DNA of 64,000 nt, taken from NCBI GenBank assembly GCA_963798915.1, contig CAWCVB010000007.1, forward strand, positions 128,001 to 192,000. Direction: 5' to 3'. Made by a program: the position numbers and the translations under genes. The notes below the pieces were generated by a model. The model was given only the letters and a program-made list of their open reading frames with translations, ran no database searches and had not been told where the DNA came from. The stretch's first letter is position 1; every line of letters begins with the position of its first letter. Of the stretch, positions 9,643 through 62,629 are shown piece after piece. This DNA comes from an uncultured Gemmatimonadales bacterium. Lineage in GTDB: Bacteria; Gemmatimonadota; Gemmatimonadetes; Gemmatimonadales; GWC2-71-9.

Positions 9643-9694
9643 ATGTCGCATGGGCCGTGGCTCAGGCCCTGCGATTTACGCCTACCATTCAGGC

Positions 9695-9967: not shown

Positions 9968-9969
9968 GG

Positions 9970-10398
9970 CTATGCCGTGGCGCCGCAGAACTTCTCGAAC
10001 GCCTGCGCCAGGTTGTCGGCGATGCTCTGCGGGCTCCGCCCCTCAATCTGATGCCGATGGACAAAATGTACCACTTCGCCATCGCGCAGCAGCGCCACCG
10101 ATGGCGACGACGGCTGATAGTCGGCAAAGTACTGGCGCGCCCGTGCCGTGGCCTCGGTGTCCTGGCCGGCAAAGACGGTGAGCACCCGGTCGGGCCGGAC
10201 GTCGTGCTTCAGCGCCAGTGAGAGTGCCGGCCGGGCATTGCCTGCCGCGCAGCCGCAGACGGAATTGACAAAGATCAGCGTGGTGCCACGCGCGTCGCCC
10301 AGCGCGGCATCCACCTCGGCCGCTGTCTTCAGTTCCTCGGCGCCCATCTGCGTCATCTCGGCACGCATCGGCGCCACCAGCTGCTCGGGGTAAGGCAT
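9970..10398 (-). CDS. BrxA/BrxB family bacilliredoxin (YphP/YqiW)
   Basis: MPYPEQLVAPMRAE, VNSVCGCAAGNARP (CGC motif), TVFAGQD, PSSPS, RHQIEG. Confidence 0.93.
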   Translation of the reverse strand: MPYPEQLVAPMRAEMTQMGAEELKTAAEVDAALGDARGTTLIFVNSVCGCAAGNARPALSLALKHDVRPDRVLTVFAGQDTEATARARQYFADYQPSSPSVALLRDGEVVHFVHRHQIEGRSPQSIADNLAQAFEKFCGATA

Positions 10399-10439
10399 TT
10401 CTGCTCCAGATCCAGGACGGTTGATCGAGGCCTCTTGCC

Positions 10440-10886
10440 TCATTCGGTCGTGACAGTCGATTCGGGCGACTCGAGCGCCGCCTTCAGGGTGTGCCAGGAA
10501 AGACTGGCGCACTTGACCCGCACCGGAAATTCGGCCACACCCTTGAACACCGCGAGCTTGCCCAGCTCAGCCGAGGTATCGGCCTTGCCGGTGACGAGCG
10601 CATGAAAACGGCTGAACAGGTCGAGCGCTTCCTGCCGGGTCCTGCCCTTGACGGCGCTGGTCATCAGTGAGGCGCTTGCCTTGCTGATGGCGCAGCCGGC
10701 GCCCTCGAACTTTACATCCTCGATCCGGTCGTCGTCGCCCAGCTTGACCCAGACGGAGAGCTCGTCGCCGCAGAGGGGATTCTGCCCCTCGGCATGGCGG
10801 TTGGCGTCGTCCAGGCGGCCAAAGTTGCGCGGCGAGCGGTTGTGGTCGAGGATGACGCTCTGGTACAGCTCGTTCATGGTGCCCAT
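10440..10886 (-). CDS. sufU: SUF system NifU-family Fe-S assembly protein SufU
   Basis: LYQSVILDH, NPLCGD, GCAISKASAS, RVKCASLSW. Confidence 0.95.
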   Translation of the reverse strand: MGTMNELYQSVILDHNRSPRNFGRLDDANRHAEGQNPLCGDELSVWVKLGDDDRIEDVKFEGAGCAISKASASLMTSAVKGRTRQEALDLFSRFHALVTGKADTSAELGKLAVFKGVAEFPVRVKCASLSWHTLKAALESPESTVTTE

Positions 10887-12127: not shown

Positions 12128-12128
12128 G

Positions 12129-13426
12129 CTATTCCAATGATCCCAGCCGCTCGAGCAGCAGGCGGTCCAGCTCCTCGCGCACTGGCGTGAGCGCCACCTC
12201 CGAGACCACCTCGGCCGCAAAGGCGTAGGTCAGGAGTCGCATGGCCTCCACCTGGGGAATGCCCCGGCTCCGGGCGTAGAACAGCGCCACGTCATCCAGC
12301 TGGCCCACCGTGGCGCCATGGGTGCACCTGACGTCATCCGCAAAGATCTCCAGCTGCGGCTTGGTATCGACCCGAGCCGTGCGGGACAGGAGCAGGTTGC
12401 GGTTGGTCTGCTTGGCGTCGGTCTTCTGCGCCTCGGGCTTCACGAACACCTTGCCGTTGAATACCGCGCGCGACTTCCCGTCCAGGACGCCCTTGTACAC
12501 TTCCCAGCTTCGGCAATCGGGATGATCGTGGAAGATGGCGGTGTGGTTGTCCACCAGCTGCTCGCCACGGGTAAGGTAGAGGCCGTAGAGCAGCGTCTCG
12601 ACATTCGAGGCGTTGAGATGCGCATCGAGGTTGTGCCGCGCGGTGGCGCCGCCCATGGCGAGCGTGAAGGAGCGGTAGTGGCTGTCCGCGGCCTGCTCCA
12701 CATGGGTGCGGCCGATGTGATAGGCCTGCTCGCTCTCCCGCTGGATGCGGGTGTGCTCCACCCAGGAGTTGGCGCCGGTTACCACCTCGGTCACCACGTT
12801 GGTAAAGTACCGCGACCCGGGCGCCACCGTCACGTAGCTCTCGACGATCGACGCGTTCGCGCCATCCTCGATGATGAAGAGATTGCGGGGATGGGTGGCC
12901 GCCCCGGCTGCCTCGCCGGTGCTCACGAACAGGACCGTAACCGGCTGCTCCAGTGTCACGCCTCGGGGCACGTGCACAAACGCTCCGTCCTTCAGGAACG
13001 CGGTGTTGAGTGCCGTGAAGGCGCTGGTGGCGATCGGCGCGTGGCGCGCCACGTGCGCTTCCAGCGACGGGTCCGCCGTCACGGCCTCCGCCAAGCTGCC
13101 GAGGCGCACCCCTGCCGGCAGGGCAGGGATCTGGGAGAGCCCGCCATCAAAGCGGCCATTGATGAACACCAGCCGGGGCCACTCAGGATGGCCAAAGTGG
13201 AAAGGCGCAACCTCCGCCTCTGTGACCGAGGCAGCGGGCGCCGGCACGAACTCCGACGAGGTAATGGCCGCCAAGGGTGTGAAGCGCCATTCCTCATCCC
13301 GCTGCGAGGGGAAGCCGGACGCAGCGAAGCTCTCAAAGGCGGCGCGCCGCACCGGCACCAGCCATGCGGGCTCGGCGCCGCCATTCCGGCTGGCCACGTC
13401 AAACTGCTTCTGGTACGAAACTGCCG

Positions 13427-13430
<4 letters not shown>
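12129..13430 (-). CDS. sufD: Fe-S cluster assembly protein SufD
   Basis: EEWRFT, AVFNGKVFV, KTDAKQ, KPQLEIFADDVRCTHGAT; GTG start overlaps the sufC TGA. Confidence 0.95.
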
Positions 13431-14200
<770 letters not shown>

Positions 14201-16459: not shown

Positions 16460-16705
16460 GGTTCGTCGGGTGGAATTGGTGTGAATTGTAAAGTGATATG
16501 GAGAAACGGGTTAGAGGTCTTCGGTCGTCCGTCATCGGTCGTGGACGGCTCTGAGCTCAATTGCCCTGGCGGAGCAAAAGGCCCGAAACTTCGACTGAGC
16601 CATGCCCCTTCGGTCGCTGCGCTCCCGCAGGCTGACACGTTGACGACCGATGACCGATGACCGACGACCGTTGACCGTTCTCCCTCCATTCCCGATCTTC
16701 TTCCC

Positions 16706-17279
16706 ATGACCATCCACCGCATCCGCCTCCTGGGCGACCCTATCCTCCGTGCCCTCTGCGAGCCCATCGAGAAGCCCTCGTCAGCCGCCATTCGGGTAAT
16801 TCTGGACGACATGCGCGAGACCCTGCGGGATTGGCAGAGCCGCTTTGGCAGCGGCCGGGCCATCGCAGCGCCCCAGATCGGGGCGCCAGTGCGGATGGTC
16901 TACGCCGAGATGGAAAAGCCCTGGGTGCTCATCAACCCCGAGATTGTGGACATTGGCAACGAGGACTTCAGCGTCTGGGACGACTGCTTCTCGTTTCCCA
17001 ATCTGCTGGTCCGGGTCTCACGTGCCTACCGGCTCCGGGTGCGCTACCAGGACCAGAAGGGTGCGTGGCATGAGGATGACCTGGAAGGGCGACCGGGCCG
17101 AGCTGGTGCAGCACGAACTCGACCACCTGGACGGCGTCCTGACCGTGGACCGGCCGCACGGCCTGGATCCCTTCTGTCTCAGGGAGGAATGGAACCGGCT
17201 CCACGCGGCAAGCGGGCGCTATGGTCCGCCGGAACCGCGAACCGGCATCTATGCGACGCCGTTGACAGGGCTGTTGTGA
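16706..17279 (+). CDS. def: Peptide deformylase family protein, frameshifted near 17088
   Basis: LGDPILR, AIAAPQIG, INPEI and DDCFS in one frame; QHELDHLDG in the next. Removing one G from GAAGGGCGAC joins them. Confidence 0.85.
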
Positions 17280-17282
17280 GGC

Positions 17283-17325
17283 GGCTGGACGGCTAGACGG
17301 CTAGACGGCTAGACGGCTGGACGGC
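17283..17325. repeat. Octamer tandem repeat (GGCTRGAC)x5
   Basis: Directly visible after def. Confidence 0.9.
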
Positions 17326-36849: not shown

Positions 36850-37410
36850 TGGGGCTCGAGCGGGACCGGGCCAGACTTCGGGCGCTCCTGCTGGAGCGGA
36901 GCGTCAAGCGGGGCGATTTCACCCTGGCCTCGGGCCAGCACTCCTCCTATTACATCGACTGCCGTCTCACCACCATGAGCGCCGAGGGGCAGGGGCTCAT
37001 CGGGAAGCTGGGGCTGGCGGCCATACGCGATCGCGGCTGGGTGCCGGACGCCGTTGGCGGCCTCACCATGGGCGCGGATCCGGTGGCCTACGCCATTGCG
37101 GCAGCAAGTTTTGGCAGCCCGCCGATAATTGATGCCTTCAGCGTGCGGAAAAGCGCCAAGGAGCACGGCACTGGCCGGCTGATCGAGGGGAACTTCGGCC
37201 CAGGGATCGCGGGTCGTGGTGATCGAGGACGTGATCACCTCGGGCGGCTCGGCGCTCAGGGCGATCGATGCGGTTCGGGATCAGGGCGGGGAAGTGCTGG
37301 GGCTGCTGGCGGTGGTGGACCGGGAGGGGGACGGGAGGGGGAGGGTAGAAGCGGCGAATGTGTCGGTCGTGGTGCTGGAGACGGCGAGAGGGTTGGGGAT
37401 TGGGGGTTAG
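36849..37410 (+). CDS. pyrE: Orotate phosphoribosyltransferase, frameshifted near 37205
   Basis: FTLASG..S.YYID, GGLTMGADP and VRKSAKEHG in one frame; the PRPP loop VIEDVITSGGS in the next. Removing one G from CCAGGGATC joins them. Confidence 0.9.
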
Positions 37411-37437
37411 GGGTTGGGGGTTGGGGGTTGGGGGTTG
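37390..37437 (+). repeat. G-rich heptamer array (GGGGGTT)n, potential G-quadruplex
   Basis: Seven G-runs spaced ~7 nt apart, overlapping the pyrE stop. Confidence 0.8.
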
Positions 37438-37825
37438 CGTCATTGCGAGGAGCGCCCATCGGGAGCGACGAAGCAATCGGGTCGCTTGCGGAACGGGTGC
37501 GCTTCCGAACTGCAGTCGACACTCCGCAACAGCGAATCACGAGAAACACGAAAGTCACGAAACTCACGAAAGCACGGAACTGATACGCGCAGGCAACCGC
37601 CATCCGTGACGCGGCACATTGCAGACCGGCGAAGTTGTCTATTTCGGCTGCACGTAGGACGCTATTTCCAGGATGATGCCGACCCCGATTGGCTGTCAGT
37701 GTAGCTTCGTCAGCGTACGCACTGGGCGGTTCAGGCCTTCCGAGCTTGCGTGACTCCGTGCGATATTGCCCTGTCCCGCCGATGACCAAGCGACCAGCAA
37801 TTACCTCTCGTTTGGTGGAGGTGCC

Positions 37826-38632
37826 ATGCGTGCACGTCGTGGGGTGATTCTGGCTCCAGTTGTGATCGCCGCGATGGCAGCGGCATGCGACTCCACCGCG
37901 CCCGCCAAGGGCACCCATCTTTCCGGCGTGATCACCGAACTCGGCAAGATCCCGGCTCCGCCAATGGATGTGAAAGTCCGCATCTGGCGATCCGGGAATC
38001 CATCGGCCGAGGACGCCGCAATCCTCCTGACGGACGCGAATGGCGCATTTGCCGTGGATCTGGCTGCGGTTGAACCGCCCGAGCTGGACAGCGTTCGCGT
38101 CATGGCAACGCGCTACGATTGTGAAGGAAATCGGGTGACGGGAGTCACAGTGCGTCGCGCAGACATCGCCGGAGCCAGGTCCATCACCATGCCCAGGATC
38201 AACCTGAATTTCGAGCTGGCTACGCCAGATGTGGCCAATGGGGCTGCCGTCTGTGCGGCCATTCCCCGGCGAACGGCCACGCTCGAGATCGATGACATGG
38301 CCCGTCTCGCGATCTGGATCGATGACATCAGTGATTCAGTCCGCGGCCGCTGGCGCGCAAACCACTCCGCCTCCATTGGTGATGACTTCGGCTATTTCAG
38401 CGGCTATGAAGCAGTGAATGCCGGCATTTCAGAGCTGCATCTCCATCTTCGGCCCACCGAACCGGCATCGTGCACCGGCCTCGATCTTGTCATTCCCACC
38501 GTGGCCGACGGCAGTGCCGAGATGGATGTCGCGACCCTGAGTGGAGGCGGCAGCTGTTCGCTGCCGGACGGACCCATCAGGTTCTTCAAGGGTGCGAGTC
38601 TGTCCGAGGTCCAGCCCCCGCTTCTCATGTAA
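37826..38632 (+). CDS. Hypothetical lipoprotein
   Basis: GGAGG RBS, lipobox AAAC, beta-rich mature region. Confidence 0.7.
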   Translation: MRARRGVILAPVVIAAMAAACDSTAPAKGTHLSGVITELGKIPAPPMDVKVRIWRSGNPSAEDAAILLTDANGAFAVDLAAVEPPELDSVRVMATRYDCEGNRVTGVTVRRADIAGARSITMPRINLNFELATPDVANGAAVCAAIPRRTATLEIDDMARLAIWIDDISDSVRGRWRANHSASIGDDFGYFSGYEAVNAGISELHLHLRPTEPASCTGLDLVIPTVADGSAEMDVATLSGGGSCSLPDGPIRFFKGASLSEVQPPLLM

Positions 38633-38776
38633 GCACAATCCAGTAACCAAAATCCAGGCATCGGAATCCTCCGGGCCTTCGATTTCTTGTACCTTTCGTG
38701 ATTTCGTGTGCCCTTTGTCATGACCTCGTAATACCGCTGTTCCATCCCTGCAAGCTGCATCTGCTATGCTGGGTTC

Positions 38777-39295
38777 ATGCGCCGAGCCCTGCCATTTGGT
38801 CCCCTCCAGTTTACAGCTCTCAGCGCGGGAGTGCTGACAGTAGTTCTGATTTGTGTCCTGATCACCGACGCAGGTGGCGTCTGGTGGGCGCTTCCATTTC
38901 CCCGCGAACTCGCCATGTATCGCCTGGAGCATGCGGCCAACTACTTCGCTTTTGGTGGCTGTGCGTATGCGCCAGCTCAGTCGTGGCAGCTCCTCCGCGA
39001 ACAGCCGAATGCCACCGAGCTGTTTGACAGCGTCGCCACCCACGCCGACTCGGCGGCGGGGCAGGTGATGGCGTTGGCCGGGCTGATCGTGGCCTCAGGA
39101 AGCGAGACTCAGGGCACAAGACACATGACCCGTATTGCTGATTCCGCCATACAGCTTCAAGAGATTCGGGTCATCCACGGCTACTGGCCGGATAGTCGCA
39201 CGGATACATTGTCGCTGTCACAGATGCTGGCACCATCGCTCCTGGATTCGGTCATCGCGTTGCTGATGCAACCTCCGTGGACTCCTGAATGCTAG
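38777..39295 (+). CDS. Hypothetical membrane-anchored protein
   Basis: 172-aa ORF with an N-terminal hydrophobic helix; lower GC. Confidence 0.5.
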   Translation: MRRALPFGPLQFTALSAGVLTVVLICVLITDAGGVWWALPFPRELAMYRLEHAANYFAFGGCAYAPAQSWQLLREQPNATELFDSVATHADSAAGQVMALAGLIVASGSETQGTRHMTRIADSAIQLQEIRVIHGYWPDSRTDTLSLSQMLAPSLLDSVIALLMQPPWTPEC

Positions 39296-39437
39296 GAGAT
39301 CGCAACCGGAGCACTGGACGTACTTGCCCGCGACCCGCCCTGAATCGAACCTGCTCGCACAATTTGGATCCATACACGCCGCCGCCGCATTCTAGCTTCG
39401 GACACGCGCTGGCCCGTGGAGCACGGGCCAACGACAC

Positions 39438-39467
39438 TTGACATGATGGTAACTGTAACGTTACCAT
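39438..39467 (+). promoter_or_regulatory. TA promoter with overlapping palindromic operator
   Basis: TTGACA-18 bp-TACCAT; ATGGTAAC-N6-GTTACCAT at 39446-39467. Confidence 0.8.
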
Positions 39468-39480
39468 TGCAGAGGCGGGT

Positions 39481-39846
39481 ATGGAGCTCCGGGAGTACAT
39501 CCGGCCGGATGGCTCGAACCCGTACCGGCGCTGGTTCGATAGGCTGAGCGCACCCGCCGCTGCCAAGGTCGCCATCGCGACCATGCGACTGAGCCAGGGA
39601 AATACCTCGCATGTGAAATGGTTCGATGGTATCGGCGAGTACGTGGTTGACTGGGGTCCTGGGTACCGTATCTATCTGGCGCAGGATGGCCACGATCTGA
39701 TCATCCTGTACGGCGGCGGGATCAAGAAGCGCCAGCAGCGGGACATCGCAAAGGCCAAGACTCTCCACAGCGAATACAAGGCTCGTAACGCGGCAAAGCA
39801 AGCAGGCGGACGGAAGCAGAGACGCAAGTCACCCCGACGGAGATGA
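39481..39846 (+). CDS. RelE/ParE-superfamily type II toxin (addiction module killer type)
   Basis: REYIRPDGSNPYRRWF, GN, GIGE..VDWGPGYRIY, LYGGG.K..Q..DI. Confidence 0.92.
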   Translation: MELREYIRPDGSNPYRRWFDRLSAPAAAKVAIATMRLSQGNTSHVKWFDGIGEYVVDWGPGYRIYLAQDGHDLIILYGGGIKKRQQRDIAKAKTLHSEYKARNAAKQAGGRKQRRKSPRRR

Positions 39847-39852
39847 GGCCAG

Positions 39853-40176
39853 ATGGCACTCACTCGCGACTTCAAACACACCGTCGCCTCCCGGCTCGCA
39901 AGGGATCCGGCCTTCGCCAAGGCGTTGCTCAATGAGGCCGCCACGCTCTTTCTCAACGGCGAGCCCGAGACTGCGCGGCTCACCTTGCGTGAACTGGTCA
40001 ATGCAACCCTGGGCTTCGAAGAGCTCGCGACGTTGACGGACACGCCAAGCAAGAGCCTGCACCGGATGCTGTCTGATCGGGGGAACCCGAGCATGGACAA
40101 TCTGGCGGCTATCTTCAACGCGCTCCGCCAGCAACTCAAGATCGATCTTCGCGCCAAGGCGGTTTCGGCCGCATGA
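39853..40176 (+). CDS. HTH antitoxin (addiction module antidote type)
   Basis: MALTRDFKHTV, GFEELA, KSLHRMLS..GNPSMDNL; directly after the toxin. Confidence 0.9.
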   Translation: MALTRDFKHTVASRLARDPAFAKALLNEAATLFLNGEPETARLTLRELVNATLGFEELATLTDTPSKSLHRMLSDRGNPSMDNLAAIFNALRQQLKIDLRAKAVSAA

Positions 40177-40309
40177 GTGCCGCCGACAGTCGTCACACGT
40201 CCAATCCCCTCTCCATCGCCACCCGCTTTTGTATCGGGACTGCCCGACCACTGGCCCAGCACGAGCGGGAGAATCTCGATCCGCCGGCTCCACATCTTCC
40301 GACCTGCGG

Positions 40310-40865
40310 GGGCTCGCAAACCCGACCTTTCTCGCCGAGGCGATCCTCTTTGGCCTCGATGGCGTACTCGTGGACTCCCGGCGCTGCATTGAGCAGGTCT
40401 GGCGGGATTGGGCCGGGCGGAATTCGATGGACGCCGACACCATCATCCGAGTCGCCCACGGCAGGCGCACCAGCGACACGCTGCGCGAGGTGGCGCCGGA
40501 ACTGACATTGCGGCGGAAGTTGCCGAACTGGATCGCATCGAAGCAACTGAGCGTCGCGGTGTCGAGCCGGTGCCCGGCGCCCTGAAGCTTCTCGATTCCA
40601 TTCCTTGTCGGCCGGCTATCTCGAAGCTGCCCGCCGCCTCGGGGTGGATCCTTCAAGGTGCGCAGTTGTCGAGGACGCCCCTGCCGGCATCGCTGCCGGC
40701 AATGCGGCGGGAATGTTTGTCCTTGGCATGGAGGGCACCTGCCCGACCTACACCCTGGCCAGTGCGAACTGCGTCCTCGCCATGCTGGGCAAGCTCCACT
40801 GCAGCGTCAGTGCAGCTCGATGGCTTGAGCTCGATTTTGGCCAGGAGCCGCCCCATGCAGATTGA
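40310..40865 (+). pseudogene. HAD-superfamily phosphatase (YfbT-like) remnant
   Basis: ILFGLDGVLVDS (nucleophile Asp replaced by Gly), HGRR, VPGA and VVEDAPAG lie in three frames; the motif II-III segment is missing. Confidence 0.8.
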
Positions 40866-47093: not shown

Positions 47094-48383
47094 CTACGAG
47101 AACCGGCGGAACATGGCCTGGATACGGGCGATCAGCGCCGCATCCACGCCGGCCTCCCTTGCCTCCGGTTCCCAGCGTTCCAGCGATGCTTCCACCTCTT
47201 CGATGATGACGGCGCCGGCCTTCGGAACGTCGAACGCGCGGCCCACGGCCAGCAGGTCATCACGGGTGAAATCGTCGTCCTTGCCGCGGGCGGTCATCTG
47301 GTGGGTCATGGCCCACGCGCCGCCGTAGGCAAAGGTCATGTCAAAGGCGGGTGCCAGCCGCCACGCCCCGTCCGGTCCCATCAGGAAGGCGACGTTCTTG
47401 ACGTGGTCGTCCTGGTTGCGGGCCATGATGTTGAAGACCATCCGGCGATACGCCTGGTCTACCGACGGCTGTCCCATGCCCAGCAGGCGAATGGTGCGGA
47501 AGTAATCTTCGTAGGAGAGAACCTGCCTGACATTGTAGTCGGCGTGCTGAAGCCCACCCAGGCTGTGCATGTGAAGCCGAGTTCCCTCCTCGCGATCAAA
47601 GCGCCGGGTCATGAAATGGGCAAAGTTGCGCTCGCGGAGCAGGAAGGTGTCGGTCATCTCGATACCGGCCGCACCGGCCATCCGCGAATAGGCAAACTCG
47701 ATGCGCCCATAGGGACCGGGGTTGAATTCCCTGGCCAGCACGTGGCCTCCTGCTCCAGCGGACACGCCATCGAACTTGATGAGCCAGTGCTCATCATCTT
47801 TTCCCCTGGGCGCAAAGGCCGACTTCACTCGCTTTGCCTCGCGGTTCCACAGCACCAGCGCCTTGGCTCGCGCACCACCCGCCGAGGCGCCCAGCTGCAT
47901 CATTTCGGGCAGCGCCACGTCCGGGTCGCCCTCGATCACGCGACGCGCCTCCTCGACCAGCTTCGCAATGGCCAGCGCCTCGCCGGTATCACGATTCATC
48001 CGTCCCTCGAGCGGCGGCCGGAACTCCAGCGCACCCATGGCGCGGCTGCCGATGTAGAGCAGCTTCTGCACCGGACTCATGGCCGCGCCCGGTGTGCCAC
48101 GCTGCTCGAAGTAGCGCCGGATCACGGCATTGCCGAAGGCATCGGGAAGACTGTCGGCCAGGAGACCGGGCAGGCCGGCGAATGATTCGGTGCGCCGCAG
48201 CTCGGGAAAGGAGACGGGGCCACGACGCGACAGGGGCAGGTGGATGGGCGAGACTTCCAGTCCCGAGCGCCGGAAGTCCTCGCTATACTCGAACACGATT
48301 CCGCCCGTGGGATCCTCGGCGACCGCGCCAAGCTCCTGGCCCCAGAGCAGGATGCTGGCGACGGCAAAGGGTGACTCAGCCAT
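47094..48383 (-). CDS. hipA: HipA-family kinase toxin
   Basis: LLADSLPD, SAGGARAK, WLIKFD, RRFDR, NQDDHVKN, LAPAFD. Confidence 0.93.
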   Translation of the reverse strand: MAESPFAVASILLWGQELGAVAEDPTGGIVFEYSEDFRRSGLEVSPIHLPLSRRGPVSFPELRRTESFAGLPGLLADSLPDAFGNAVIRRYFEQRGTPGAAMSPVQKLLYIGSRAMGALEFRPPLEGRMNRDTGEALAIAKLVEEARRVIEGDPDVALPEMMQLGASAGGARAKALVLWNREAKRVKSAFAPRGKDDEHWLIKFDGVSAGAGGHVLAREFNPGPYGRIEFAYSRMAGAAGIEMTDTFLLRERNFAHFMTRRFDREEGTRLHMHSLGGLQHADYNVRQVLSYEDYFRTIRLLGMGQPSVDQAYRRMVFNIMARNQDDHVKNVAFLMGPDGAWRLAPAFDMTFAYGGAWAMTHQMTARGKDDDFTRDDLLAVGRAFDVPKAGAVIIEEVEASLERWEPEAREAGVDAALIARIQAMFRRFS

Positions 48384-48693
48384 CGGGCGACGCGCGGCGA
48401 GGCGTCCCGGCGCGCTGACGCTGGCGCCCGCGCAGCTTCACCAGCTGCATGGGAGAGACGAGCGGGGCAGGGAGGAACGCATCAAGCGCCTCCAGCCGGC
48501 CCAGGGCACGAAGAATCTGGATGACCGTGGCCAGGGTCGGATTCTCGCCGGCCTCAGCCCGGGCAAGGGTCCGGACACTGATGCCAGCGGCGGCGGCGAC
48601 GTCAGCCGCGGTACGGTTCTGCTGCAGCCGGTAGCGTTCGAGCCGGTGGCCGATCTCGGCGAGCGCTTCACTGGTGGTGGCCGTGGTGTCCAT
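48376..48693 (-). CDS. HipB-like XRE HTH antitoxin
   Basis: RLQQNRT..VAAAAGISVRTLARAEAG; overlaps the hipA start. Confidence 0.88.
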   Translation of the reverse strand: MDTTATTSEALAEIGHRLERYRLQQNRTAADVAAAAGISVRTLARAEAGENPTLATVIQILRALGRLEALDAFLPAPLVSPMQLVKLRGRQRQRAGTPRRASPDG

Positions 48694-48720
48694 CGTGCCA
48701 TCCAAGGTTCGGTGTACAAG

Positions 48721-48875
48721 AGACATATATGTCTTGTTACATGTTATTATGTAGCTACCTCGTCAGATATGTCCTATTATAGCGTCGAAAACAGATGGAA
48801 TCAAGCTAAGTAAACGTTAAGCTGCAATATATGCCCTTTTGACTGTTCTAGTAGCGTTAAGACGACATATACGTC
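48721..48875. promoter_or_regulatory. AT-rich hipBA control region with four GACATATATGTC-like sites
   Basis: Cores at 48725, 48765, 48827 and 48867; perfect palindrome AGACATATATGTCT at 48721-48734. Confidence 0.65.
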
Positions 48876-56036: not shown

Positions 56037-56214
56037 CCCGCCTCCGCATTCGTCGGGTAGATGCACCGCCCGAGACGAGCGAGCCCGACCTCGGCACCGA
56101 GCGCGTTGCGGAATCGAGCCGTCGTCACTTGCCAAGTGACGCCAGCGTGACAGCAGCGTCACGGGCGCCCGTATCCTGCGCTGGGTAGCACGCCGCCGAG
56201 GAGGTCGAAGCAAG

Positions 56215-59200
56215 GTGACCCAATTCATGCACAGCAGGGCTATCCTCGCGACCGCGCTGATGGGCGCGCTCGTCGCCGCCGAAGGCTGCAATCGCACGTC
56301 AGGCGCGTCGGCGAGCGACCGAACGGCCATGGCGCTCGAGCAATGCGATCCGGCCCGCTACATCCCCTGCATTCCGCAGGTCGCCTTTCTTTCCGTCCCC
56401 CTTCATGATGCCGGTCTCTATCTCACCTACTCGAGCCAGTGGGCGCCCGGCGTGTCGGGCCATCGTCCGTGGGACGTCGGCTCGCTGGGACTCGGTGGCT
56501 GGTCCATCAATCCCATTCAGCGCTATGACACCGCCCAACGGGTGCTCTTCAGCGGCGACGGGTCCTGGCGCATCGCGAGCAGCGTGCGACTTCCGTCGGA
56601 TGAGCGAGTCGTTCCCAGCTACGACGGAGCACTCGCCTACGTCTTCGATCCCGCTGGCCGCCATGTGCGCACCATGGACGGCCACCTCGGCACCGTGCTG
56701 CTTCACATCGAGTACGACGCTGTTGGCCGTCTGACCAGCATCGACGGATCGCTCGACGGCGCTCCGGCGCACCTGTCGGTCCAGCGCGCACCCGACGGCA
56801 CGGCGCGCGCCCTCGCGGGTACGGATGGCGGCACGACGTCGCTCACGATGGAGCCGCGTGGCCGGCTGACAGCAGTCACCAACCCCGCTGGCGCCACCAC
56901 GCGTATCGACTGGGATGAGGGCGGACACGTCGTCTCGCAGACGGATCCGCTGGGCGGGGTTGCGCACTACAGCTACGATAACTCGGGACGAGTCGTCTCT
57001 TACGTCGACGCGGACAGCGTCGCGCAACGATTCGAGCGGCACGAATCGAGCAAGAGCCTCGAGATCCGTGTATCGACCACCCTCGGCCGACACTGGACGT
57101 ATCGCGGGGAGCTTCTGGACGGCGCGATCCGCCGCACGTTCATCGATCGGGACGGTTCGATGAGCACCGAAACCGTCGACCCACGTGGCGCGCGTGTGAT
57201 CAAGCTCGCCGACGGAACGAGCTACAGCGTCGGCGCGCTGGCGCATCCAGTCTGGAGCATGTCGGCGCCGATCTTGACACCCGTGGTGCAATCCCGCCCC
57301 GACGGAGTCACAGCCCGGCGCGAGGTGAAGTACGCGCTCCAGCCGCAGCGTGGTCTTCCCTACATGCTCGCGGGATCTGTCACCACCGTTATCAACGGTC
57401 GCGCGTGGAGGCAAGACTTCGATCCTCTCAGACGCACGGTAGTGCTGGTCGGCCCCGCCGGGCGTCGCACGCTCATCACGTACGATTCCGCAGGCCGTGT
57501 GCTGAGCCACTCGGCGCCAGGCAGACCGCCGGCGGCGTATGCGTACGACGCCGCCGGGCGGATGGTGAGCGAGACCATCGGGGCGGGTCAACTCGCCCGC
57601 ACCACCCGCTACGTCTACGACGCGAACACCGGCCGGATCACTACCACCCTTCCCGACGGTGTCGTCGAGCACGCGACCGTCGACAAAGCTGGACATATGG
57701 TGCAGGCGTCCGCCGGAGACGGCTCGACGGCGATTGCAGCCTATGACGGTGGCGATCGGCTCATCCAGCTCCAACCCGCCGGAGGGGTGAGCTTCACCCT
57801 GGGCTCGAGCCCCGGCGGTCGGCCCACCGCGTTCGTGCCACCTGTCGTGCCGGGTGATTCGTCCATTGAGTCGCGCTCCTACGATCCCGATGGACAACTG
57901 ACGCGGATTGTCGGATCGGGTGGGCGCGCCGTGATGCTTTCGTACGATGACGCGGGACGGGTGAAGCGCTGGAGCTTCGATCAGGGCACGCGAACCATTT
58001 TCTACGACCCGCGAACCGGCGCGACAACTCGGGCCACGGATCCGAGCGGCGTGACCACCACCTACGGTTACGCGGGCGACCTCGCCGATCGCCTGACCTG
58101 GTCCGGGCCAATTGCTGGTTCGGTCGGCGTCACACTCGATGCGAACGGACGTCCCGCGGCCGAAGCGGTGAACGGGGCGGACACGCTGCGCTTCGCCTAC
58201 GACGGATCGGGCTTGCTCACGAGGGTCGGACCGCTGACGCTTACGCGCGACTCCGCGAGTGGGCTGGTCACGGCGACGAAGCTCGGGGTGGTCGAGACCC
58301 GGCAGACATTCGACGCGAACGGATCGCTCATGCGCGCAACGACGACCGTGCGTGGCGACGTGGTGTTCGAGCTGCGCTACACACGCGATGTGCTCGGACG
58401 AATCGCGAGCGTCAGTCAGACGACCGGCCACGGGAAGCCGTCGCGTACCGCCTACGCGTACGATGCGGCCGGTCGGTTATCTGCCGTTCGGGAGAACGGC
58501 CGACCGGCGGAGAGCGAGGGCTATGATCCGGCCGGGAATCGTGTCGCGGTGAACCGCCCGAGCGCCACCTTAAAGGCCGCCTACGACGATCGCGATCGCG
58601 CGATGACGTGGGGCTCGCGTCACTACTCATGGTCGCCCGACGGCAGCCTGACTCGGGTCATCGAGGATGCGAGCGCGACGTCGTTCACCTACGACGACTT
58701 CGGCGCGCTTCGCACGGCCACGCTTCCCGACGGGCGGGAGGTCAGCTATCTCGTTGATGCCGACGGGCGTCGTGTGGGCCGCCGGGTCGGGCGGAACATC
58801 GTCGCGGGATATCTCTATCGGCTGGATGGCTTCGTCGCCGCGGAAACAGATCCGAAAGGCAGGGTGGTCTCGCGATTCGGCTACGATGATCTGGGCCATC
58901 TCGCGCTGGTGGAGCGTGGCGGCATTGCGTACCGCGTGATAACAGATGCGGTGGGGAGCCCACTCCTGGTCATCGATTCGCGGAATGGCAACATTGCCGA
59001 GGCGATGGCGTACAGCCCGTGGGGACGCATGATGCAGGACACGGCGCCGGGGTTCACTCCGTTCGGGTTCGCGGGCGGATTGCGGGATCCGGACACCGAC
59101 CTGCTCCGCATGGGAGCACGCGACTACGAGCCAGCGACGGGGCGCTGGACGGCGGCCGATCCCCTGCGATTCGCCGGCGGCGATGCGAACTTGTACCGCT

Positions 59201-61428
59201 ATGCGGCGGGCGATCCGGTCAACCGAGTCGATCCACGCGGAATGTGTATTTCGCTGAAGGAGGTGGACATCGCCATAACTCGCGGCTTGGCGTCTCACTT
59301 ACCGGAGATGAAGGGGGAAAACGACCTGTGTCCTGACGCAGCGATCGGCACACTCACGAATCCCGCGACGCCGCAGAACAACAATCCACCTCCACCTGGC
59401 GATCCGCCGGCGGCGGGGAACCCACCAGGGAACGGCAGTCCCTTCGATTGGGGATGCAAGGGAACTATATGCGTGGGTCCGGACGGTCTGGGCTGCGAGT
59501 TCGGAAGCTGTCACAAGAACCCGTTCGGATTCACCTGCGACGCGGTGTATTGCCACGGGCCAGGCAATGAGTGGTGTTTCTACTGCTCCATGGGCGACCC
59601 TCATCTGCAAGCTGGAAACGGCGCTCGCTTCGACCTTCAGGCCGCCGGCGAATTCCTGATGGTGACCTCGCGCGATGGCGACCACGTCGTTCAGGCGCGG
59701 CAGGAGCCGTATGTCCAGGGAGCTCCGGTAACGGTCAACAGCGCCGTCGCCGCCAATCTGAGCGGCGATCACGTGGGCGTCTACGCCACCGAACCTGATT
59801 TCCTGCTGGTGAATGGCGTACCCGTCCGGCAGCTCGATATCGAGAGACGCTTGCCGCACGGCGACTCGATCGAGCGCCACGGTGGTCTTGTGATCCTCCG
59901 CTGGCGCGACGGCAGTCGACTGACCGTCAGCCGCGTCGTGAGAAGCTTGAATTACGCTTTCGTTCCCGGCCCGGGTGTCGGACCGCTGCGCGGCCTGCTT
60001 GGCGGAGCCGGCATCGACTCGCCGCACACGCTCACCAGCCGCGATGGCGCTGTCCTCCGACTCTCCGATCCCACCTTCGGGAAGAAGCTCTATCAGCAGG
60101 TCGGCAACAGCTGGCGGATCAGGCAATCCGAGTCGCTGTTCCACTACTGGCCCGGCGAAAGCACCGCGACCTTCACGAACGTGAGCTTCCCAGCCAAGCT
60201 GGTGACGGCCGCCTCGCTCTCCGCTGCGGTGCGGTCGAAGGCTGAAGCGATCTGTCGCGCCGTGGGCGTGCACACTCGGCCCGTGCTCGACGACTGCATT
60301 CTGGACGTCGGGATCACCGACCTGCCCGCCTTCGCCGCGGCATCGGTCGCCTTGGCGGCGAGCTTACCTCCGCGTCGCGCGCCGTCCGCCACCGCGTCGT
60401 CCTCGATCGCATCGCCCTCCAGCGCATTCGCCATCACGCTCGGCGATTCCGTATCTCCGAATCATCCAGCCAGGGGCGCGGGGATCATCTTGCATGCCGG
60501 GGAGAAGCAGTCGTATGCGTTTTCCGCCCCTGCGGGAACGAGCATCTTCGTCGAGGTTGGGCCGTGTCAGGGCGCGACGCCCACATTCGAGGTGCTCGCA
60601 CCGGACAGCACGCCGCTCGGCGGCACCTTCGGTTGCACCGGGTTCGGTCCGGTGCGCCTCTCCGCTGCCGGCGTTCATCGCATCGTCGTCGCCACCCTTG
60701 ACACGGGAATGGTCCGCTACCGCCTTACCCTTCGCATCGCGCCGTTCGACCAGTACGCGATCCGCATCGGTGACACGGTCTCTCCCGACCATCCCGCTCC
60801 CGGTGCAGGCATCATCACCAGCCCCGGGCAGAAACAGTCCTATGCATTCGCCGGCGTGGCGGGCCAGGCCGTGTATGTGGGAGTCGGCCCGTGCGAGGGC
60901 GCCAACCCGAGCTTCGACCTCCGCGCGCCGGACGACAAATTGCTCGGGGGCGTAATCGGCAACTGTCACGCCGATATCGGCCGGCAGGTCCTGCCCGTGA
61001 CGGGCACATACCACATCGTCGCAAGCACGGTCAACAAGACCGATGTCTCACGCTACAGCTTCTTTGTGCACACCGTTCCCGGCGATCAGCATTTCCCGGT
61101 GCGACTGCCGATCACCGTCTCTCTCGATGGTCCGGCTGCCGGATCCGGGCGCATGCGCACACAGGGGGTTCAGCAGTTCTACGACTTCAGCGCCAGCCCT
61201 GGGACGGTGGTCCATGTCGAGAGTCGCTGCAATCCGGCGTGCTCACATCTGGCGGTCCGGGTGACCCGAGCGGGCGACACTGGCGAAGGCCAGTTTCTCG
61301 ATCTGAATTATCTCAGACACGATTGGACGTTGCCGCCGGGCGGCAACTACACGATCCAAGTGCGCTCGACCGGGTTCACTGGTACATACGGCTTCACGGC
61401 GTCGCCGGCTGTGACGCGGCGTCGCTGA
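56215..61428 (+). CDS. Teneurin-like YD/Rhs repeat protein with C-terminal Cys-rich, VWD and three PPC-like domains
   Basis: GAGGAGG RBS, signal peptide, many YDxxGR repeats, Rhs core ending NLYRYAAGDPVNRVDPRG, GDPH motif, three ~105-aa repeats. Confidence 0.9.
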   Translation: MTQFMHSRAILATALMGALVAAEGCNRTSGASASDRTAMALEQCDPARYIPCIPQVAFLSVPLHDAGLYLTYSSQWAPGVSGHRPWDVGSLGLGGWSINPIQRYDTAQRVLFSGDGSWRIASSVRLPSDERVVPSYDGALAYVFDPAGRHVRTMDGHLGTVLLHIEYDAVGRLTSIDGSLDGAPAHLSVQRAPDGTARALAGTDGGTTSLTMEPRGRLTAVTNPAGATTRIDWDEGGHVVSQTDPLGGVAHYSYDNSGRVVSYVDADSVAQRFERHESSKSLEIRVSTTLGRHWTYRGELLDGAIRRTFIDRDGSMSTETVDPRGARVIKLADGTSYSVGALAHPVWSMSAPILTPVVQSRPDGVTARREVKYALQPQRGLPYMLAGSVTTVINGRAWRQDFDPLRRTVVLVGPAGRRTLITYDSAGRVLSHSAPGRPPAAYAYDAAGRMVSETIGAGQLARTTRYVYDANTGRITTTLPDGVVEHATVDKAGHMVQASAGDGSTAIAAYDGGDRLIQLQPAGGVSFTLGSSPGGRPTAFVPPVVPGDSSIESRSYDPDGQLTRIVGSGGRAVMLSYDDAGRVKRWSFDQGTRTIFYDPRTGATTRATDPSGVTTTYGYAGDLADRLTWSGPIAGSVGVTLDANGRPAAEAVNGADTLRFAYDGSGLLTRVGPLTLTRDSASGLVTATKLGVVETRQTFDANGSLMRATTTVRGDVVFELRYTRDVLGRIASVSQTTGHGKPSRTAYAYDAAGRLSAVRENGRPAESEGYDPAGNRVAVNRPSATLKAAYDDRDRAMTWGSRHYSWSPDGSLTRVIEDASATSFTYDDFGALRTATLPDGREVSYLVDADGRRVGRRVGRNIVAGYLYRLDGFVAAETDPKGRVVSRFGYDDLGHLALVERGGIAYRVITDAVGSPLLVIDSRNGNIAEAMAYSPWGRMMQDTAPGFTPFGFAGGLRDPDTDLLRMGARDYEPATGRWTAADPLRFAGGDANLYRYAAGDPVNRVDPRGMCISLKEVDIAITRGLASHLPEMKGENDLCPDAAIGTLTNPATPQNNNPPPPGDPPAAGNPPGNGSPFDWGCKGTICVGPDGLGCEFGSCHKNPFGFTCDAVYCHGPGNEWCFYCSMGDPHLQAGNGARFDLQAAGEFLMVTSRDGDHVVQARQEPYVQGAPVTVNSAVAANLSGDHVGVYATEPDFLLVNGVPVRQLDIERRLPHGDSIERHGGLVILRWRDGSRLTVSRVVRSLNYAFVPGPGVGPLRGLLGGAGIDSPHTLTSRDGAVLRLSDPTFGKKLYQQVGNSWRIRQSESLFHYWPGESTATFTNVSFPAKLVTAASLSAAVRSKAEAICRAVGVHTRPVLDDCILDVGITDLPAFAAASVALAASLPPRRAPSATASSSIASPSSAFAITLGDSVSPNHPARGAGIILHAGEKQSYAFSAPAGTSIFVEVGPCQGATPTFEVLAPDSTPLGGTFGCTGFGPVRLSAAGVHRIVVATLDTGMVRYRLTLRIAPFDQYAIRIGDTVSPDHPAPGAGIITSPGQKQSYAFAGVAGQAVYVGVGPCEGANPSFDLRAPDDKLLGGVIGNCHADIGRQVLPVTGTYHIVASTVNKTDVSRYSFFVHTVPGDQHFPVRLPITVSLDGPAAGSGRMRTQGVQQFYDFSASPGTVVHVESRCNPACSHLAVRVTRAGDTGEGQFLDLNYLRHDWTLPPGGNYTIQVRSTGFTGTYGFTASPAVTRRR

Positions 61429-61555
61429 CGCGTTCCACAGGGTTTCCCGCGCGCGCGAGCCGCAACCCGGAGTAAAACCCATGAGGTGGCCGATGCGGAC
61501 AGAGTCAATTGCACTCCAACCAGGAGTTGCGTGCGCGGACAGTGCCCTCCGATAT

Positions 61556-62629
61556 ATGCGCGGGCATCGCGGGCTGGCACTGGTGCTGCTTTGTCTCGTG
61601 GCGGCGGCATGCACGGGCAGGACACGAGACCGCGCCTCGGGGCAGGCCGTCGCGTTGCAAGGGAAAGGCGACGCGACACGTGACGACCCCTGCTCGCTGC
61701 TCGACGTGAGCGACGTTGCTGCGGCCATTGGCCCACTGGCGGGACCGCCGTATCGCGGCGACCCAAACCCCGATCCCTCGAGCGACGTGTGCCGATACGA
61801 GACAAATGATTACCGCCGCATTCAGCTCTCTGTGGATTGGACGGGCGGCGCGATGGCGATGAAGATGGTGGCCCTCGGCCGGCGCCTCGGGGACAAGGCG
61901 CTCCAGGCGGAGACACAGACTGGTATCGTTCTCAAGGCGGGCGATACGCTGCGCGGCGACTGGGATCAAATTGCCTTGTCGCCAGCCTCCTGCTGCTCAC
62001 TCGACGCGCTCCGGGGCGACGCGGACGTGCAGCTCGACTGGACGGGGACGCGCCTGACCATCGCCGCCGCGGGCGCGCTGCTCAATTCGGCCATCAGGCG
62101 GCTGAACCATCGGCTGGCGATTGACGGCACGGCCGGCGAAGCAGCGGCGAAGCAGCGTTGGGCGGCAATGGCGCAAGACAGCGCGCTCGACGCATGCGGG
62201 CTCGTCTCCCAGCAGGACGCCGAGGCGATTATCGGAACCCCGCTCTCGGTGCCGCCGGACCATGGGTCGGCGCAAGAGGGCCCGCGCCGCACGTCCTGCT
62301 ATTATCGCACGCCGATGCCGAACGCGCCGAACGCGGCATTCGTGTACGAGATCGACCTGAAGGAGTGGAGCGATGCGCACGCGAAGTTCGCGGAGGACGA
62401 GTTCGTCATCAACGGCGCCGTGGGCGGGATCCGACGTCAGTGGTCGGGCGGCGACTCCACCACGCCCGCCGAGGCCCCCGAACCGCCGGGCCCCTGGGAC
62501 GAGATCGGGTCCTCCGTGAGTGGGGGTTACCAGGCGGTCAAGGGCCCGCTGCTGCTGGCGGTGTCCACCAACGGAGATCATACCAGAGCACGGGCGCTTC
62601 TGGCCAAGGCAGTCAGCGCATTGCAATGA
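61556..62629 (+). CDS. Lipoprotein with two tandem DUF3558-like domains
   Basis: Lipobox VAAAC; DPCSLLDVSDVAAAIG...CRY and DACGLVSQQDAEAIIG...CYY. Confidence 0.7.
   Translation: MRGHRGLALVLLCLVAAACTGRTRDRASGQAVALQGKGDATRDDPCSLLDVSDVAAAIGPLAGPPYRGDPNPDPSSDVCRYETNDYRRIQLSVDWTGGAMAMKMVALGRRLGDKALQAETQTGIVLKAGDTLRGDWDQIALSPASCCSLDALRGDADVQLDWTGTRLTIAAAGALLNSAIRRLNHRLAIDGTAGEAAAKQRWAAMAQDSALDACGLVSQQDAEAIIGTPLSVPPDHGSAQEGPRRTSCYYRTPMPNAPNAAFVYEIDLKEWSDAHAKFAEDEFVINGAVGGIRRQWSGGDSTTPAEAPEPPGPWDEIGSSVSGGYQAVKGPLLLAVSTNGDHTRARALLAKAVSALQ

Follow-up and report, generated by a model that had tools for sequence, protein, structure and literature searches.

A teneurin-like protein of an uncultured Gemmatimonadales bacterium with a probably plugged YD shell that lacks FN3 sandwich and NHL propeller, and with a conserved VWD- and PPC-like C-terminal region

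In a 64,000-nucleotide stretch of DNA from an uncultured Gemmatimonadales bacterium (contig CAWCVB010000007.1, positions 128,001 to 192,000; hereafter the window), one gene encodes a large protein related to the bacterial teneurin-like proteins (TLPs). Its open reading frame (ORF; 56215..61428 on the forward strand) starts with GTG, runs as a single long frame of 1737 amino acids and has a G+C content of 0.66-0.67, similar to the remainder of the window. The protein consists of an N-terminal signal peptide, two short segments that resemble the halves of the teneurin plug, a YD shell closed by an Rhs-associated core, and a C-terminal region with a VWD-like domain and three PPC-like repeats (Table 1). 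The original prediction for this locus had described a minimal teneurin-like shell ending at 59244. That position is not the gene end but residue 1010, the last residue of the self-cleavage motif PVNRVDPRGM, and 727 further codons, undescribed until now, follow up to 61428. All strings on which the prediction had relied are present in the 1737-aa protein, namely LVAAEGC (residues 19-25, ending at Cys25), SVPLHDAGLYLTYSS (60-74), LGGWSINPIQRYD (93-105), LFSGDGS (111-117), VPSYDGALAYVFDPAGRHVRT (133-153) and VLLHIEYD (161-168), and the short spacings reported between them are accurate (18 aa from LTYSS to LGGWS and 15 aa from SGDGS to VPSYDG). From alignments, profile comparisons and a shell tree, we consider it highly probable that the protein combines a plug and a TLP-type shell, having lost the FN3 sandwich and the NHL propeller, with a VWD-PPC C-terminus.

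With residues 1-400 as query we obtained 61 cluster representatives (42-62% identity, covering 72-100% of the query), most of them 1550-2000 aa long, which we refer to as the family. The YD repeats and Rhs core of the original prediction are matched by Pfam RHS_repeat (E 1.4e-40, 8 stretches), TIGR01643 (E 4.8e-40), Pfam TEN_YD-shell (E 8e-23) and, at residues 933-1010, TIGR03696 Rhs_assc_core (E 6e-21). When the single sequence was searched against the PDB, the TLP of Bacillus inaquosorum (BiTLP) came first (9pt5_A, 5.4e-93; 9ifo_A, 1.1e-90), followed by metazoan teneurins (1e-37 and weaker) and Rhs proteins belonging to type VI secretion systems (T6SS; 3.6e-31 and weaker). The same order was obtained with the family profile (BiTLP 4e-161; teneurins 1e-73 to 1e-61; T6SS Rhs 1e-56 and weaker). 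The shell aligns end to end with residues 1264-2144 of BiTLP, and shell plus core measure 882 aa here, 876-882 aa in 18 family rows and 875-921 aa in seven TLPs. A hidden Markov model of the shell gave one collinear match to each of these seven TLPs, while other Rhs proteins were matched in 8-17 fragments over 1067-1497 aa.

We built a tree of 51 shells, comprising 18 of 62 family rows, 13 TLPs and 20 of 58 other Rhs proteins (16 of these with DUF6531); the TLP fragment P0186 was left out because it has no core. TLPs had been sampled with the FN-plug-to-NHL part of P0103 as query, which returned mostly multi-NHL proteins and yielded six further TLPs. All 18 family rows form one clade, which is sister to the seven TLPs with 880-aa shells; together these are sister to five TLPs with ~1200-aa shells, and the whole assemblage is set apart from the other Rhs proteins, each of these groupings with a support of 100 in the Shimodaira-Hasegawa-like approximate likelihood ratio test (SH-aLRT). 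Constraining 12 TLPs to a single clade, a group picked after the tree had been seen, was rejected in the approximately unbiased (AU) test (delta lnL 124.3, p-AU 2.6e-7). With the root on other Rhs proteins the family is nested inside the TLPs, so that parsimony favours a single loss of FN3 and NHL over two gains. The teneurin-type shell of the original prediction is therefore upheld both by the ranking of BiTLP and teneurins ahead of T6SS Rhs proteins and by the phylogeny that it had proposed as a check, in which the family falls within the TLP radiation and not with other Rhs proteins. Locus L059, considered as an intermediate with NHL but no FN-plug, was discarded, being a TLP gene split by a frameshift into overlapping ORFs (5515-9972 and 9725-14110).

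The N-terminal part was then compared with the plug of teneurins and TLPs. In Pfam, residues 1-200 match no DUF6531, FN-plug (FN-plug_TEN1-4) or NHL model at E<=10, and no TEN_NHL or NHL match is found in the shell protein. An ordinary Rhs N-terminus, the outcome that would have told against the original prediction, was not seen across the family either: DUF6531 is unmatched, and PF20148 occurs in none of 61 family rows as against 51 of 58 distant Rhs proteins. A profile of residues 38-178 retrieved 19 PDB sequences at E<=10, 18 of them teneurins or TLP, and for a plug-only profile (residues 41-126) all six matches were teneurins or TLP (Ten-m 2.2e-4, BiTLP 1e-3). In the plug-only profile the second segment, W-D-x-x-x-L-G-L-G-G-W-S...R-Y-D...G-D-G, aligns to about residues 885-923 of BiTLP (independent E-value, i-E, 0.006) and to residues 320-361 of Ten-m (i-E 0.007). 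This is the end of the FN-plug region, directly before the NHL propeller; the TLP survey places the BiTLP regions at 673-928 (FN-plug), 929-1255 (NHL) and 1256-2139 (shell) (PMC13018210). In the genome pattern scan, LGLGGWS[IL][ND] occurred outside the family solely in proteins shown by Pfam to be TLPs (9 of 12 non-family pattern loci were scanned, and TEN_NHL was present in 9 of 9). In three TLP loci (L060, L064 and L062) the motif lies at aa 641, 745 and 1269, between the FN-plug and NHL matches. The flanking motifs of the original prediction thus proved to be true homologies.

Alignment of 57 family N-termini with six TLP FN-plug regions in hhalign gave two collinear matches, of residues 60-124 with the FN-plug end (probability 97.9%, E 5.6e-13) and of residues 49-82 with the FN-plug start (probability 59%, E 9e-5). 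The first segment is also collinear with residues 719-759 of BiTLP and 205-241 of Ten-m, both matches below threshold. In a MAFFT E-INS-i alignment of 14 family N-termini and five TLP segments, 108-113 aa of the TLPs are empty in every family row between R84 and P85, and 325-360 aa between L126 and E130; the edges of both gaps are sharp, with joints of 3-10 residues remaining. According to the description of the teneurin structure by Jackson et al. 2018 (PMC5851990), the FN-plug is an FN3 domain into which 44 aa are inserted between strands one and two and to which 38 aa are added at the C-terminus; insertion and extension together form the plug, which lies inside the shell. The pieces retained here are 44 aa and 42 aa long. 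Since the retained flanks correspond to both halves of the plug sub-domain, only the FN3 sandwich would be gone from the FN-plug. We infer that the plug halves were kept and directly joined while the FN3 sandwich and the NHL propeller were lost. The supposed absence of both FN-plug and propeller thus holds for the NHL propeller and the FN3 sandwich, which correspond to the alignment gaps, and not for the plug itself.

Conservation is higher in the plug remnant than in the shell (median pairwise identities over 55 rows of 0.57 and 0.50, respectively). The two cysteines of the plug are invariant where the rows are filled (C44 in 59 of 59, C52 in 60 of 60), C44 corresponding to C719 and the family's G48 to G723 of BiTLP. 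The residue after G48 is Tyr, Leu or Phe, and Ser, Thr or Cys in none of 59 rows, so that the chain break of BiTLP at G723|S724 is probably not kept.

The C-terminal 727 residues had been overlooked, and the word minimal does not fit the protein because this region is large, conserved and of adhesion type. As a single sequence it has no match in Pfam, NCBIfam or the PDB, but BLASTP found its VWD part in 55 other proteins (42-62% identity) and its repeats in 51. Median pairwise identities of its parts are 0.53 (VWD), 0.37 (repeats), 0.35 (Cys-rich part) and 0.23 (tether). As a whole the region is conserved like the shell and is not polymorphic. Across the family, 65-267 aa, with a P/G/N/S/T/Q content of 37-75%, separate the core from G[DE][PT]H, and this stretch mostly ends in a Cys-rich part with CxGxxC-type spacing and even numbers of Cys. 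A profile of residues 1076-1400 (22 rows) matched five VWD stretches of FCGBP (8rde_A, E 1.3e-36), the alignment spanning GDPH and reaching the LDDCxxD start of the C8 part. Pfam lists VWD for 14 of 61 family rows, with matches in P0026, P0047 and P0041; the window sequence alone gives no such match. In the GDPH column the family has Gly in 55 of 56 rows, Asp in 40 and Glu in 16, Pro in 34 and Thr in 20, and His in all 56. Self-cleavage at Asp-Pro has been described for animal VWD domains (Yeshaya et al. 2024, PMC10880436). With Asp-Pro replaced in about a third of the relatives it would not be general in the family; in the window protein, which keeps both residues, it is possible.

The repeats that follow are related to one another, repeats 1 and 2 sharing 53 identical residues in 112 columns (z 42 in pairwise alignment against shuffles) and repeat 3 reaching z 7.6 and 9.4 against repeats 1 and 2 over 42-43 columns; a self-BLAST of the region showed no internal repeat. 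The equivalent of repeat 2 in the relative P0022 matches Pfam PPC with 26.9 bits (cut-off 25.9); two related non-Rhs proteins (P0252 and P0257) also match PPC, and the window repeats have no PPC (PF04151) match at E<=10. A weak match of the repeats to PliG (E 0.048) is a lead only. Among 1.84 billion representatives, 3933 proteins carry the VWD/PPC-like modules at E<=1e-3, and many of these are not Rhs proteins. Many of the 12 module-bearing proteins that we sampled have fn3, DUF11, WSC, Big, PKD or PPC domains, as found in large proteins that are secreted or sit at the surface. Neither a toxin nor an enzyme family was matched in the window's protein or in 10 scanned relatives. A protein atlas contains a cluster that combines VWD with Peptidase_M91 (score 0.78), again a lead only. 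Six relatives (P0011, P0048, P0023, P0050, P0044 and P0026) have a hydrophobic stretch of transmembrane (TM) grade within 70 aa past the Rhs cut, which recalls the membrane-active C-terminal domain of BiTLP. The corresponding segment of the window protein is not hydrophobic (maximum Kyte-Doolittle value 0.73), and a hydrophobic membrane anchor just past the cut was rejected as a general feature, being present in only 6 of 57 members and missing from the window.

Table 1. Features of the shell gene, its product and the downstream ORF (window coordinates).
Feature	Position	Strand	Residues and remarks
Shine-Dalgarno-like GAGGAGG	56198..56204	+	10 nt upstream of the GTG start codon; seen in the sequence itself
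Signal peptide	56215..56289	+	1-25, ending in imperfect lipobox A-E-G-C25
Variable spacer	56290..56334	+	26-40, between anchor Cys and plug
Plug part 1	56335..56466	+	41-84; L-E-x-C44-D-P-A-G-Y-I-x-C52 ... S-I-P-I-x-D-T-G-L-x-L-T-Y-S-S-x-W
Plug part 2	56467..56592	+	85-126; W-D-x-x-x-L-G-L-G-G-W-S-I-N-x-x-Q-R-Y-D ... S-G-D-G-S-W-R
Three-residue junction P-S-D	56593..56601	+	127-129; where TLPs have the NHL propeller (MAFFT alignment)
YD shell	56602..59010	+	130-932; Pfam RHS_repeat, TEN_YD-shell
Rhs-associated core	59011..59244	+	933-1010; R977, D982, D1006; P-V-N-R-V-D-P-R-G-M1010
Predicted autoproteolytic site	59242..59247	+	M1010 / C1011; M1010 aligned to BiTLP L2144, where density stops
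Pro/Gly/Asn-rich variable tether	59245..59439	+	1011-1075
Cys-rich part	59440..59589	+	1076-1125; 8 Cys, CxGxxC-type spacing
VWD-like domain with C8-like start	59590..60384	+	1126-1390; GDPH at 1127-1130 (nt 59593-59604)
PPC-like beta-sandwich repeat 1	60427..60753	+	1405-1513
PPC-like repeat 2	60754..61092	+	1514-1626
PPC-like repeat 3 and stop codon	61093..61428	+	1627-1737
Downstream ORF P0122, putative lipoprotein	61555..62629	+	listed from ATG 61481; likelier ATG 61555 gives MRGHRGLALVLLCLVAAAC

The protease triad of the Rhs core is intact. R977, D982 and D1006 align to the BiTLP triad R2111, D2116 and D2140; over 62 rows R977 is conserved in 58, and D982, D1006 and G1009 in all 62. Position 1010 is Leu in 53 rows. 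From the alignment with BiTLP, cleavage is expected at M1010|C1011.

The protein is probably Sec-exported and membrane-tethered, judging by its N-terminus, in which Arg8 is followed by a 14-residue hydrophobic stretch, AILATALMGALVAA, with a mean Kyte-Doolittle value of 2.26. We applied a PROSITE-like lipobox rule to the 62 family rows: 40 pass, 8 are cut at the N-terminus and 5 have a TM-like helix without the Cys. The window's own lipobox fails the rule because of Glu at position -2. The exported and possibly lipid-anchored shell that had been proposed is thus borne out at the level of the family and not by the window's lipobox, and V-A-A|E could also serve as a signal peptidase I site. In the five proteins with the N-terminal TM helix (P0011, P0027, P0031, P0042 and P0052), this helix looks uncleaved and takes the place of the lipobox, forming a type II anchor like that of animal teneurins. 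Residues 1-40 are variable (median pairwise identity 0.23), and in the relatives 13-51 aa separate the lipobox Cys from the conserved plug Cys. With the plug so close to the anchor, the plugged mouth of the shell should face the membrane. The mature shell fragment has two Cys (44 and 52) and the C-terminal region 18, a distribution that fits an oxidising, extracytoplasmic location.

The distribution of the family was assessed by a pattern scan of one genome per species, with a pattern from a trimmed 8-row alignment. It gave 70 loci, 58 of them with the whole N-terminal region. These 58 family loci lie in 56 assemblies, every one a metagenome-assembled genome (MAG), and belong to Chloroflexota (35), Acidobacteriota (16), Dormiibacterota (3), Pseudomonadota (2), Gemmatimonadota (1) and Saccharimonadota (1). 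Of the 50 loci with at least 5 kb available past the gene start, all 50 have the plug, 48 the core, 49 the VWD part and 44 the repeats. Family genes from long-read MAGs are often broken into pieces, and a few short family proteins end in low-complexity read-through; both read as assembly frameshifts. Short members (1078-1261 aa) were accordingly dismissed as carriers of other small toxins, their tails resembling frameshifted low-complexity read-through. Two family genes (L002 and L040) share contig JBEKMM010000014.1, and L032 and L058 both belong to one MAG; one pair of family genes from the same genome is about 10 kb apart and divergently oriented. Taken together, the family is a conserved and not rare component of uncultured soil lineages and most probably a reduced offshoot of the bacterial TLPs.

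Downstream of the shell gene lies P0122, which has a lipoprotein-type signal and two similar halves, no match in Pfam or NCBIfam, and no homologue adjoining any of the 58 family loci. The genes flanking the shell gene in the window likewise have no homologues beside these loci, and a search for a conserved partner gene common to the window and its relatives ended with none among the 58. No conserved downstream gene was found across the 58 loci, while in TLPs an immunity gene is reported to follow almost every gene (PMC13018210). Ten family loci share a DUF3558-like ORF; kinship of P0122 with this neighbour was rejected, the BLASTP match (E 0.068) being not significant. In eight Acidobacteriota loci (e.g. 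L053 6767-7720) the family gene is immediately preceded by the end of a conserved ORF for a secreted protein without assigned family, whose mature form has about 220 aa, and a second unknown ORF (L016 5018-6781) is common to six loci. Directly upstream of the family gene, 14 of 58 loci, from Chloroflexota, Dormiibacterota and one bin labelled Saccharimonadales, have a large regulator of LuxR/MalT type (AAA_16, TPR_MalT and GerE; e.g. L040 6254-9400). It may serve this gene as a dedicated regulator; the window has none.

For the window as a whole, 46 likely genes and then 82 more ORFs from uncovered stretches were scanned against Pfam. No PAAR, VgrG, T6SS or Tc family was matched among these 128 ORFs, in agreement with the original prediction, which had reported no PAAR, VgrG, TcA, TcB or T6SS genes. 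Its view that the protein is not an injected effector also stands, given that the protein is of neither T6SS nor Tc type, has no DUF6531 and has no such genes around it. The gene content (MnmG, ParA, Pol I, Suf, bactofilin, a HipA/HTH pair, a cold-shock protein) is housekeeping and miscellaneous, and neither tRNA nor Rfam matches were found within the window. Among the matches listed for MnmG, the nearest named relatives (68-74% identity) all come from MAGs of Gemmatimonadales, so that the host is probably a diderm member of the Gemmatimonadota. The gene for a HipA-like kinase (HipA_C, Couple_hipA; 47094-48437, reverse strand) adjoins that of a small HTH_3 protein (48379-48762, reverse strand), which together look like a HipBA-type toxin-antitoxin pair. 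Peptide deformylase is matched in two overlapping forward frames (16661-17293 and 16800-17276, covering model positions 2-131 and 121-149), which suggests a frameshift, real or from sequencing. The lowest G+C content of the window falls within about 37100-40800 (0.606 at 38001-40000), where 25 of 26 scanned ORFs have no Pfam match, the exception being a HAD-hydrolase fragment (40551-40862).

We next set the protein beside the known systems that contain YD shells. With TLPs (BiTLP, PDB 9IFO/9PT5) it shares shell size and sequence, both plug halves, the R/D/D triad and PxxxxDPxG of the Rhs core, and the lack of a dedicated secretion machine nearby; for Gram-negative TLPs a Sec/signal peptidase II lipoprotein signal has been described, as found in most family rows. 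Unlike TLPs, it has no FN3 sandwich, NHL, TTR, TIP or N-terminal adhesion domains, and its C-terminal region is a conserved 76-kDa assembly of VWD and PPC-like modules, whereas that of TLPs is reported to be ~15 kDa, hypervariable and encapsulated. The family also has no conserved downstream immunity gene. The protein therefore fails three features that define TLPs: FN3, NHL, and a small polymorphic cargo with immunity. Metazoan teneurins (Ten2 6FB3, Ten-m 8FIA) have in common with it the plug and three-turn YD shell, an N-terminal membrane tether, and a conserved C-terminal part too large to enclose, which lies outside the shell in teneurins and presumably does so here. Teneurins differ in having FN3, NHL and TTR domains, EGF repeats and a C-terminal ABD/Tox-GHH, so that only the shell and plug halves match. 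They are also described as uncut and without the cleavage triad (PMC5851990), which is intact here, and they are type II transmembrane proteins, whereas most relatives of the present protein have a lipobox and 5 of 62 a TM-like helix.

More distant systems match in part. The T6SS Rhs effectors (RhsA of Pseudomonas protegens; 7Q97, 8H8B, 8CP6) share the Rhs cocoon, the aspartyl autoprotease and the principle of an N-terminal plug; PAAR, VgrG, prePAAR and DUF6531 are absent here, and our shell scores much lower against them, with matches in fragments only. Their cargo is given as ~15 kDa, and the cork plug of RhsA is stated to be non-homologous to the FN-plug, in the RhsA paper (PMC8765631). Tc cocoons (TcdB2-TccC3, YenBC) share the YD cocoon and the protease, but only the Rhs core matches TccC or YenC (E 2e-7 to 1e-4); the four turns, beta-propeller closure, ~30-kDa cargo and need for TcA reported for them have no counterpart here. 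The VWD signature with GDPH and LDDCxxD is shared with FCGBP and mucin assemblies, which like our protein are extracellular and have a Cys-rich module ahead of the VWD domain; unlike them, the bacterial protein has a single VWD domain with no full C8/TIL and no Cys in the VWD body. The mosquito protein SGS1, a distant match (E 6e-17), is described as using an Rhs/YD shell as a scaffold for surface receptor domains with a partly shielded C-terminal part (PMC9935623); it is eukaryotic, its shell is Tc-like with propellers, and it ends in helices instead of VWD and PPC modules.

Whether the C-terminal region can reside inside the shell was considered from size. At 76.2 kDa it would occupy ~92,000 cubic angstroms (1.21 A3/Da), while the BiTLP cavity is given as ~44,000 cubic angstroms and typical TLP cargo as ~15 kDa in the TLP survey (PMC13018210). 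In the RhsA paper, cocoons with three turns are likewise assigned ~15 kDa, and the Tc cocoons with their four turns ~30 kDa (PMC8765631). The first ~115 residues of the region amount to 11.9 kDa and the VWD-PPC arm to 64 kDa; with room in the cavity for the first ~115 residues only, the arm would have to lie outside. In the sequence of events that we propose, the protein would be exported by Sec and then lipidated or cleaved from its signal peptide at Cys25; the shell would fold with the plug in its N-terminal mouth and this mouth toward the membrane; and the Rhs core would cut M1010|C1011. At most the first ~115 C-terminal residues (12 kDa) would remain in the cavity. Outside, the 64-kDa arm would act in adhesion or binding, either on display at the anchored shell or after release from it.

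In our view, the best explanation overall is a scaffold of plug and shell, tethered to the membrane, from which an adhesion module is displayed or released, though we hold it with evenly divided confidence. That the protein works as a surface recognition or adhesion device, like metazoan teneurins, and not as a toxin capsule, is a tentative reading. A bolder version, which we think unlikely, sees here an independent bacterial conversion of a teneurin-type toxin capsule to an adhesion device, in which cuts at M1010|C1011 and D1128|P1129 would give a three-piece non-covalent machine. The pieces may be the lipid-anchored plug and shell, a ~12-kDa Cys-rich piece in the cavity, and the 64-kDa VWD-PPC arm, which may be held to the inner piece only through the first VWD strand; pulling force or pH at the surface to which the protein is bound might then free the arm or extract the inner piece.

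A different role for the shell would be that of a vehicle for secretion and maturation, where the anchored plug and shell are only an intramolecular chaperone and self-cleaving carrier, and the product is a free VWD-PPC protein, e.g. a matrix or biofilm component, freed after export. PPC domains (PF04151) occur in secreted pre-peptidases. The intact triad, the long disordered tether, the presence of VWD and PPC-like modules in many proteins without an Rhs part, and the fact that no conserved element was seen to retain the C-terminal region after the cut all agree with this. On the other hand, an 880-aa shell with a highly conserved plug (identity 0.57) would be a costly carrier, its conservation suggests a function of its own, and other proteins that contain these modules do without a carrier of this kind; on balance we consider this reading improbable, if worth keeping in mind.

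We give still less credit to a polymorphic-toxin capsule, in which the shell would hide a toxic C-terminal piece, released to kill neighbours, with the downstream lipoprotein P0122 as immunity protein. The toxicity would reside either in the variable ~115 residues past the cut or, as a cryptic activity, in the VWD/PPC part. The nearest relatives, the TLPs, do carry encapsulated toxins and a downstream immunity gene, the protease triad is conserved, and P0122 lies on the same strand 126 nt past the stop codon (from its likelier start). The segment just past the cut is as hypervariable as toxin tips are and, at 11.9 kDa, would fit the cavity, and in 6 of 57 relatives it contains a hydrophobic stretch of TM grade that recalls the membrane-active C-terminal domain of BiTLP. 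But this segment is of low complexity (Pro/Gly/Asn/Ser) and not domain-like, in the window it is not hydrophobic (maximum 0.73), and most of the C-terminal region is as conserved as the shell and made of adhesion-type modules. The window protein and 10 relatives gave no toxin family, P0122 has no homologue beside the 58 family loci, and these loci share no conserved downstream gene.

Least credible is that plug and shell are primitive, with FN3 and NHL inserted later in the TLP line: although a plug that pre-dates FN3 is conceivable, the teneurin plug being formally an insertion in and an extension of FN3, and although the root of the shell tree was assumed, the order obtained with other Rhs proteins as outgroup, (long-shell TLPs,(880-aa TLPs, family)) with nodes at SH-aLRT 98-100, the rejection of TLP monophyly (p-AU 2.6e-7), the parsimony of one loss over two gains, and the sharp deletion edges with 3-10-residue joints make it very unlikely.

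Several points weigh against the membrane-tethered scaffold with its lost domains and displayed adhesion module. The window protein itself departs from the family consensus at places that matter, with Glu at lipobox position -2, Arg in place of Gly48 and Met in place of Leu1010, and GDPH is not universal among the relatives. The first plug half is the weak one, both by its hhalign probability of 59% and by PDB matches below threshold. For the tree, the loss of FN3 and NHL depends on the assumed root; the search was a quick one with SH-aLRT support only, the composition deviates in many rows, the AU test used a group chosen with the tree in view, and P0215, which has FN-plug and NHL domains, is placed among ordinary Rhs shells and not among TLPs. 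As to function, a conserved protease triad is what marks Rhs toxins that release a cargo, and in the literature every TLP C-terminal domain that was tested is treated as a toxin. We know of no conserved element that would retain the C-terminal region after the M1010 cut, and the first 65 residues past the cut are its least conserved part. The same-strand gene P0122 could be a partner of the shell gene. Plug docking, the exit path of the chain and the position of the C-terminal region outside the shell are inferred from sequence, size arithmetic and the structures of other proteins.

Within the bacterial teneurin-like kind the protein would represent a new form, of which we found no printed description. 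The TLP survey (Raoelijaona et al., Nat Commun 2026, PMC13018210) used isolate genomes and three HMMs and required all three domains; it presents the superfold organisation as invariant and the C-terminal domains as small polymorphic toxins. Its main text mentions no VWD, von Willebrand, PPC, truncated or minimal forms, and in 11 of its 12 supplement files VWD, von Willebrand, Chloroflexota, Gemmatimonadota, Terriglobales and Limnocylindrales do not occur. Full-text literature searches turned up no account of any TLP or Rhs protein that carries VWD or lacks NHL. The family would have escaped the survey because it lives in uncultured soil lineages, while the survey covered isolate genomes. From within the TLP clade it contradicts both statements of the survey. 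The shell and the inner plug, which the NHL propeller is said to stabilise, persist without this propeller and without the FN3 sandwich, and in the place of the toxin stands a large and conserved module, built from domains of extracellular type. With the family, a large number of VWD domains are added to those of bacteria, which a 2025 paper still treats as newly seen, calling the myxobacterial prok-SAA proteins the first bacterial example (PMC12419801). If our interpretation is true, the protein would offer the smallest natural plug-and-shell unit for structural work and a concrete test case for the exit of a chain from a closed YD shell, and the family would be a bacterial precedent for the shift from toxin to adhesion behind the animal teneurins.

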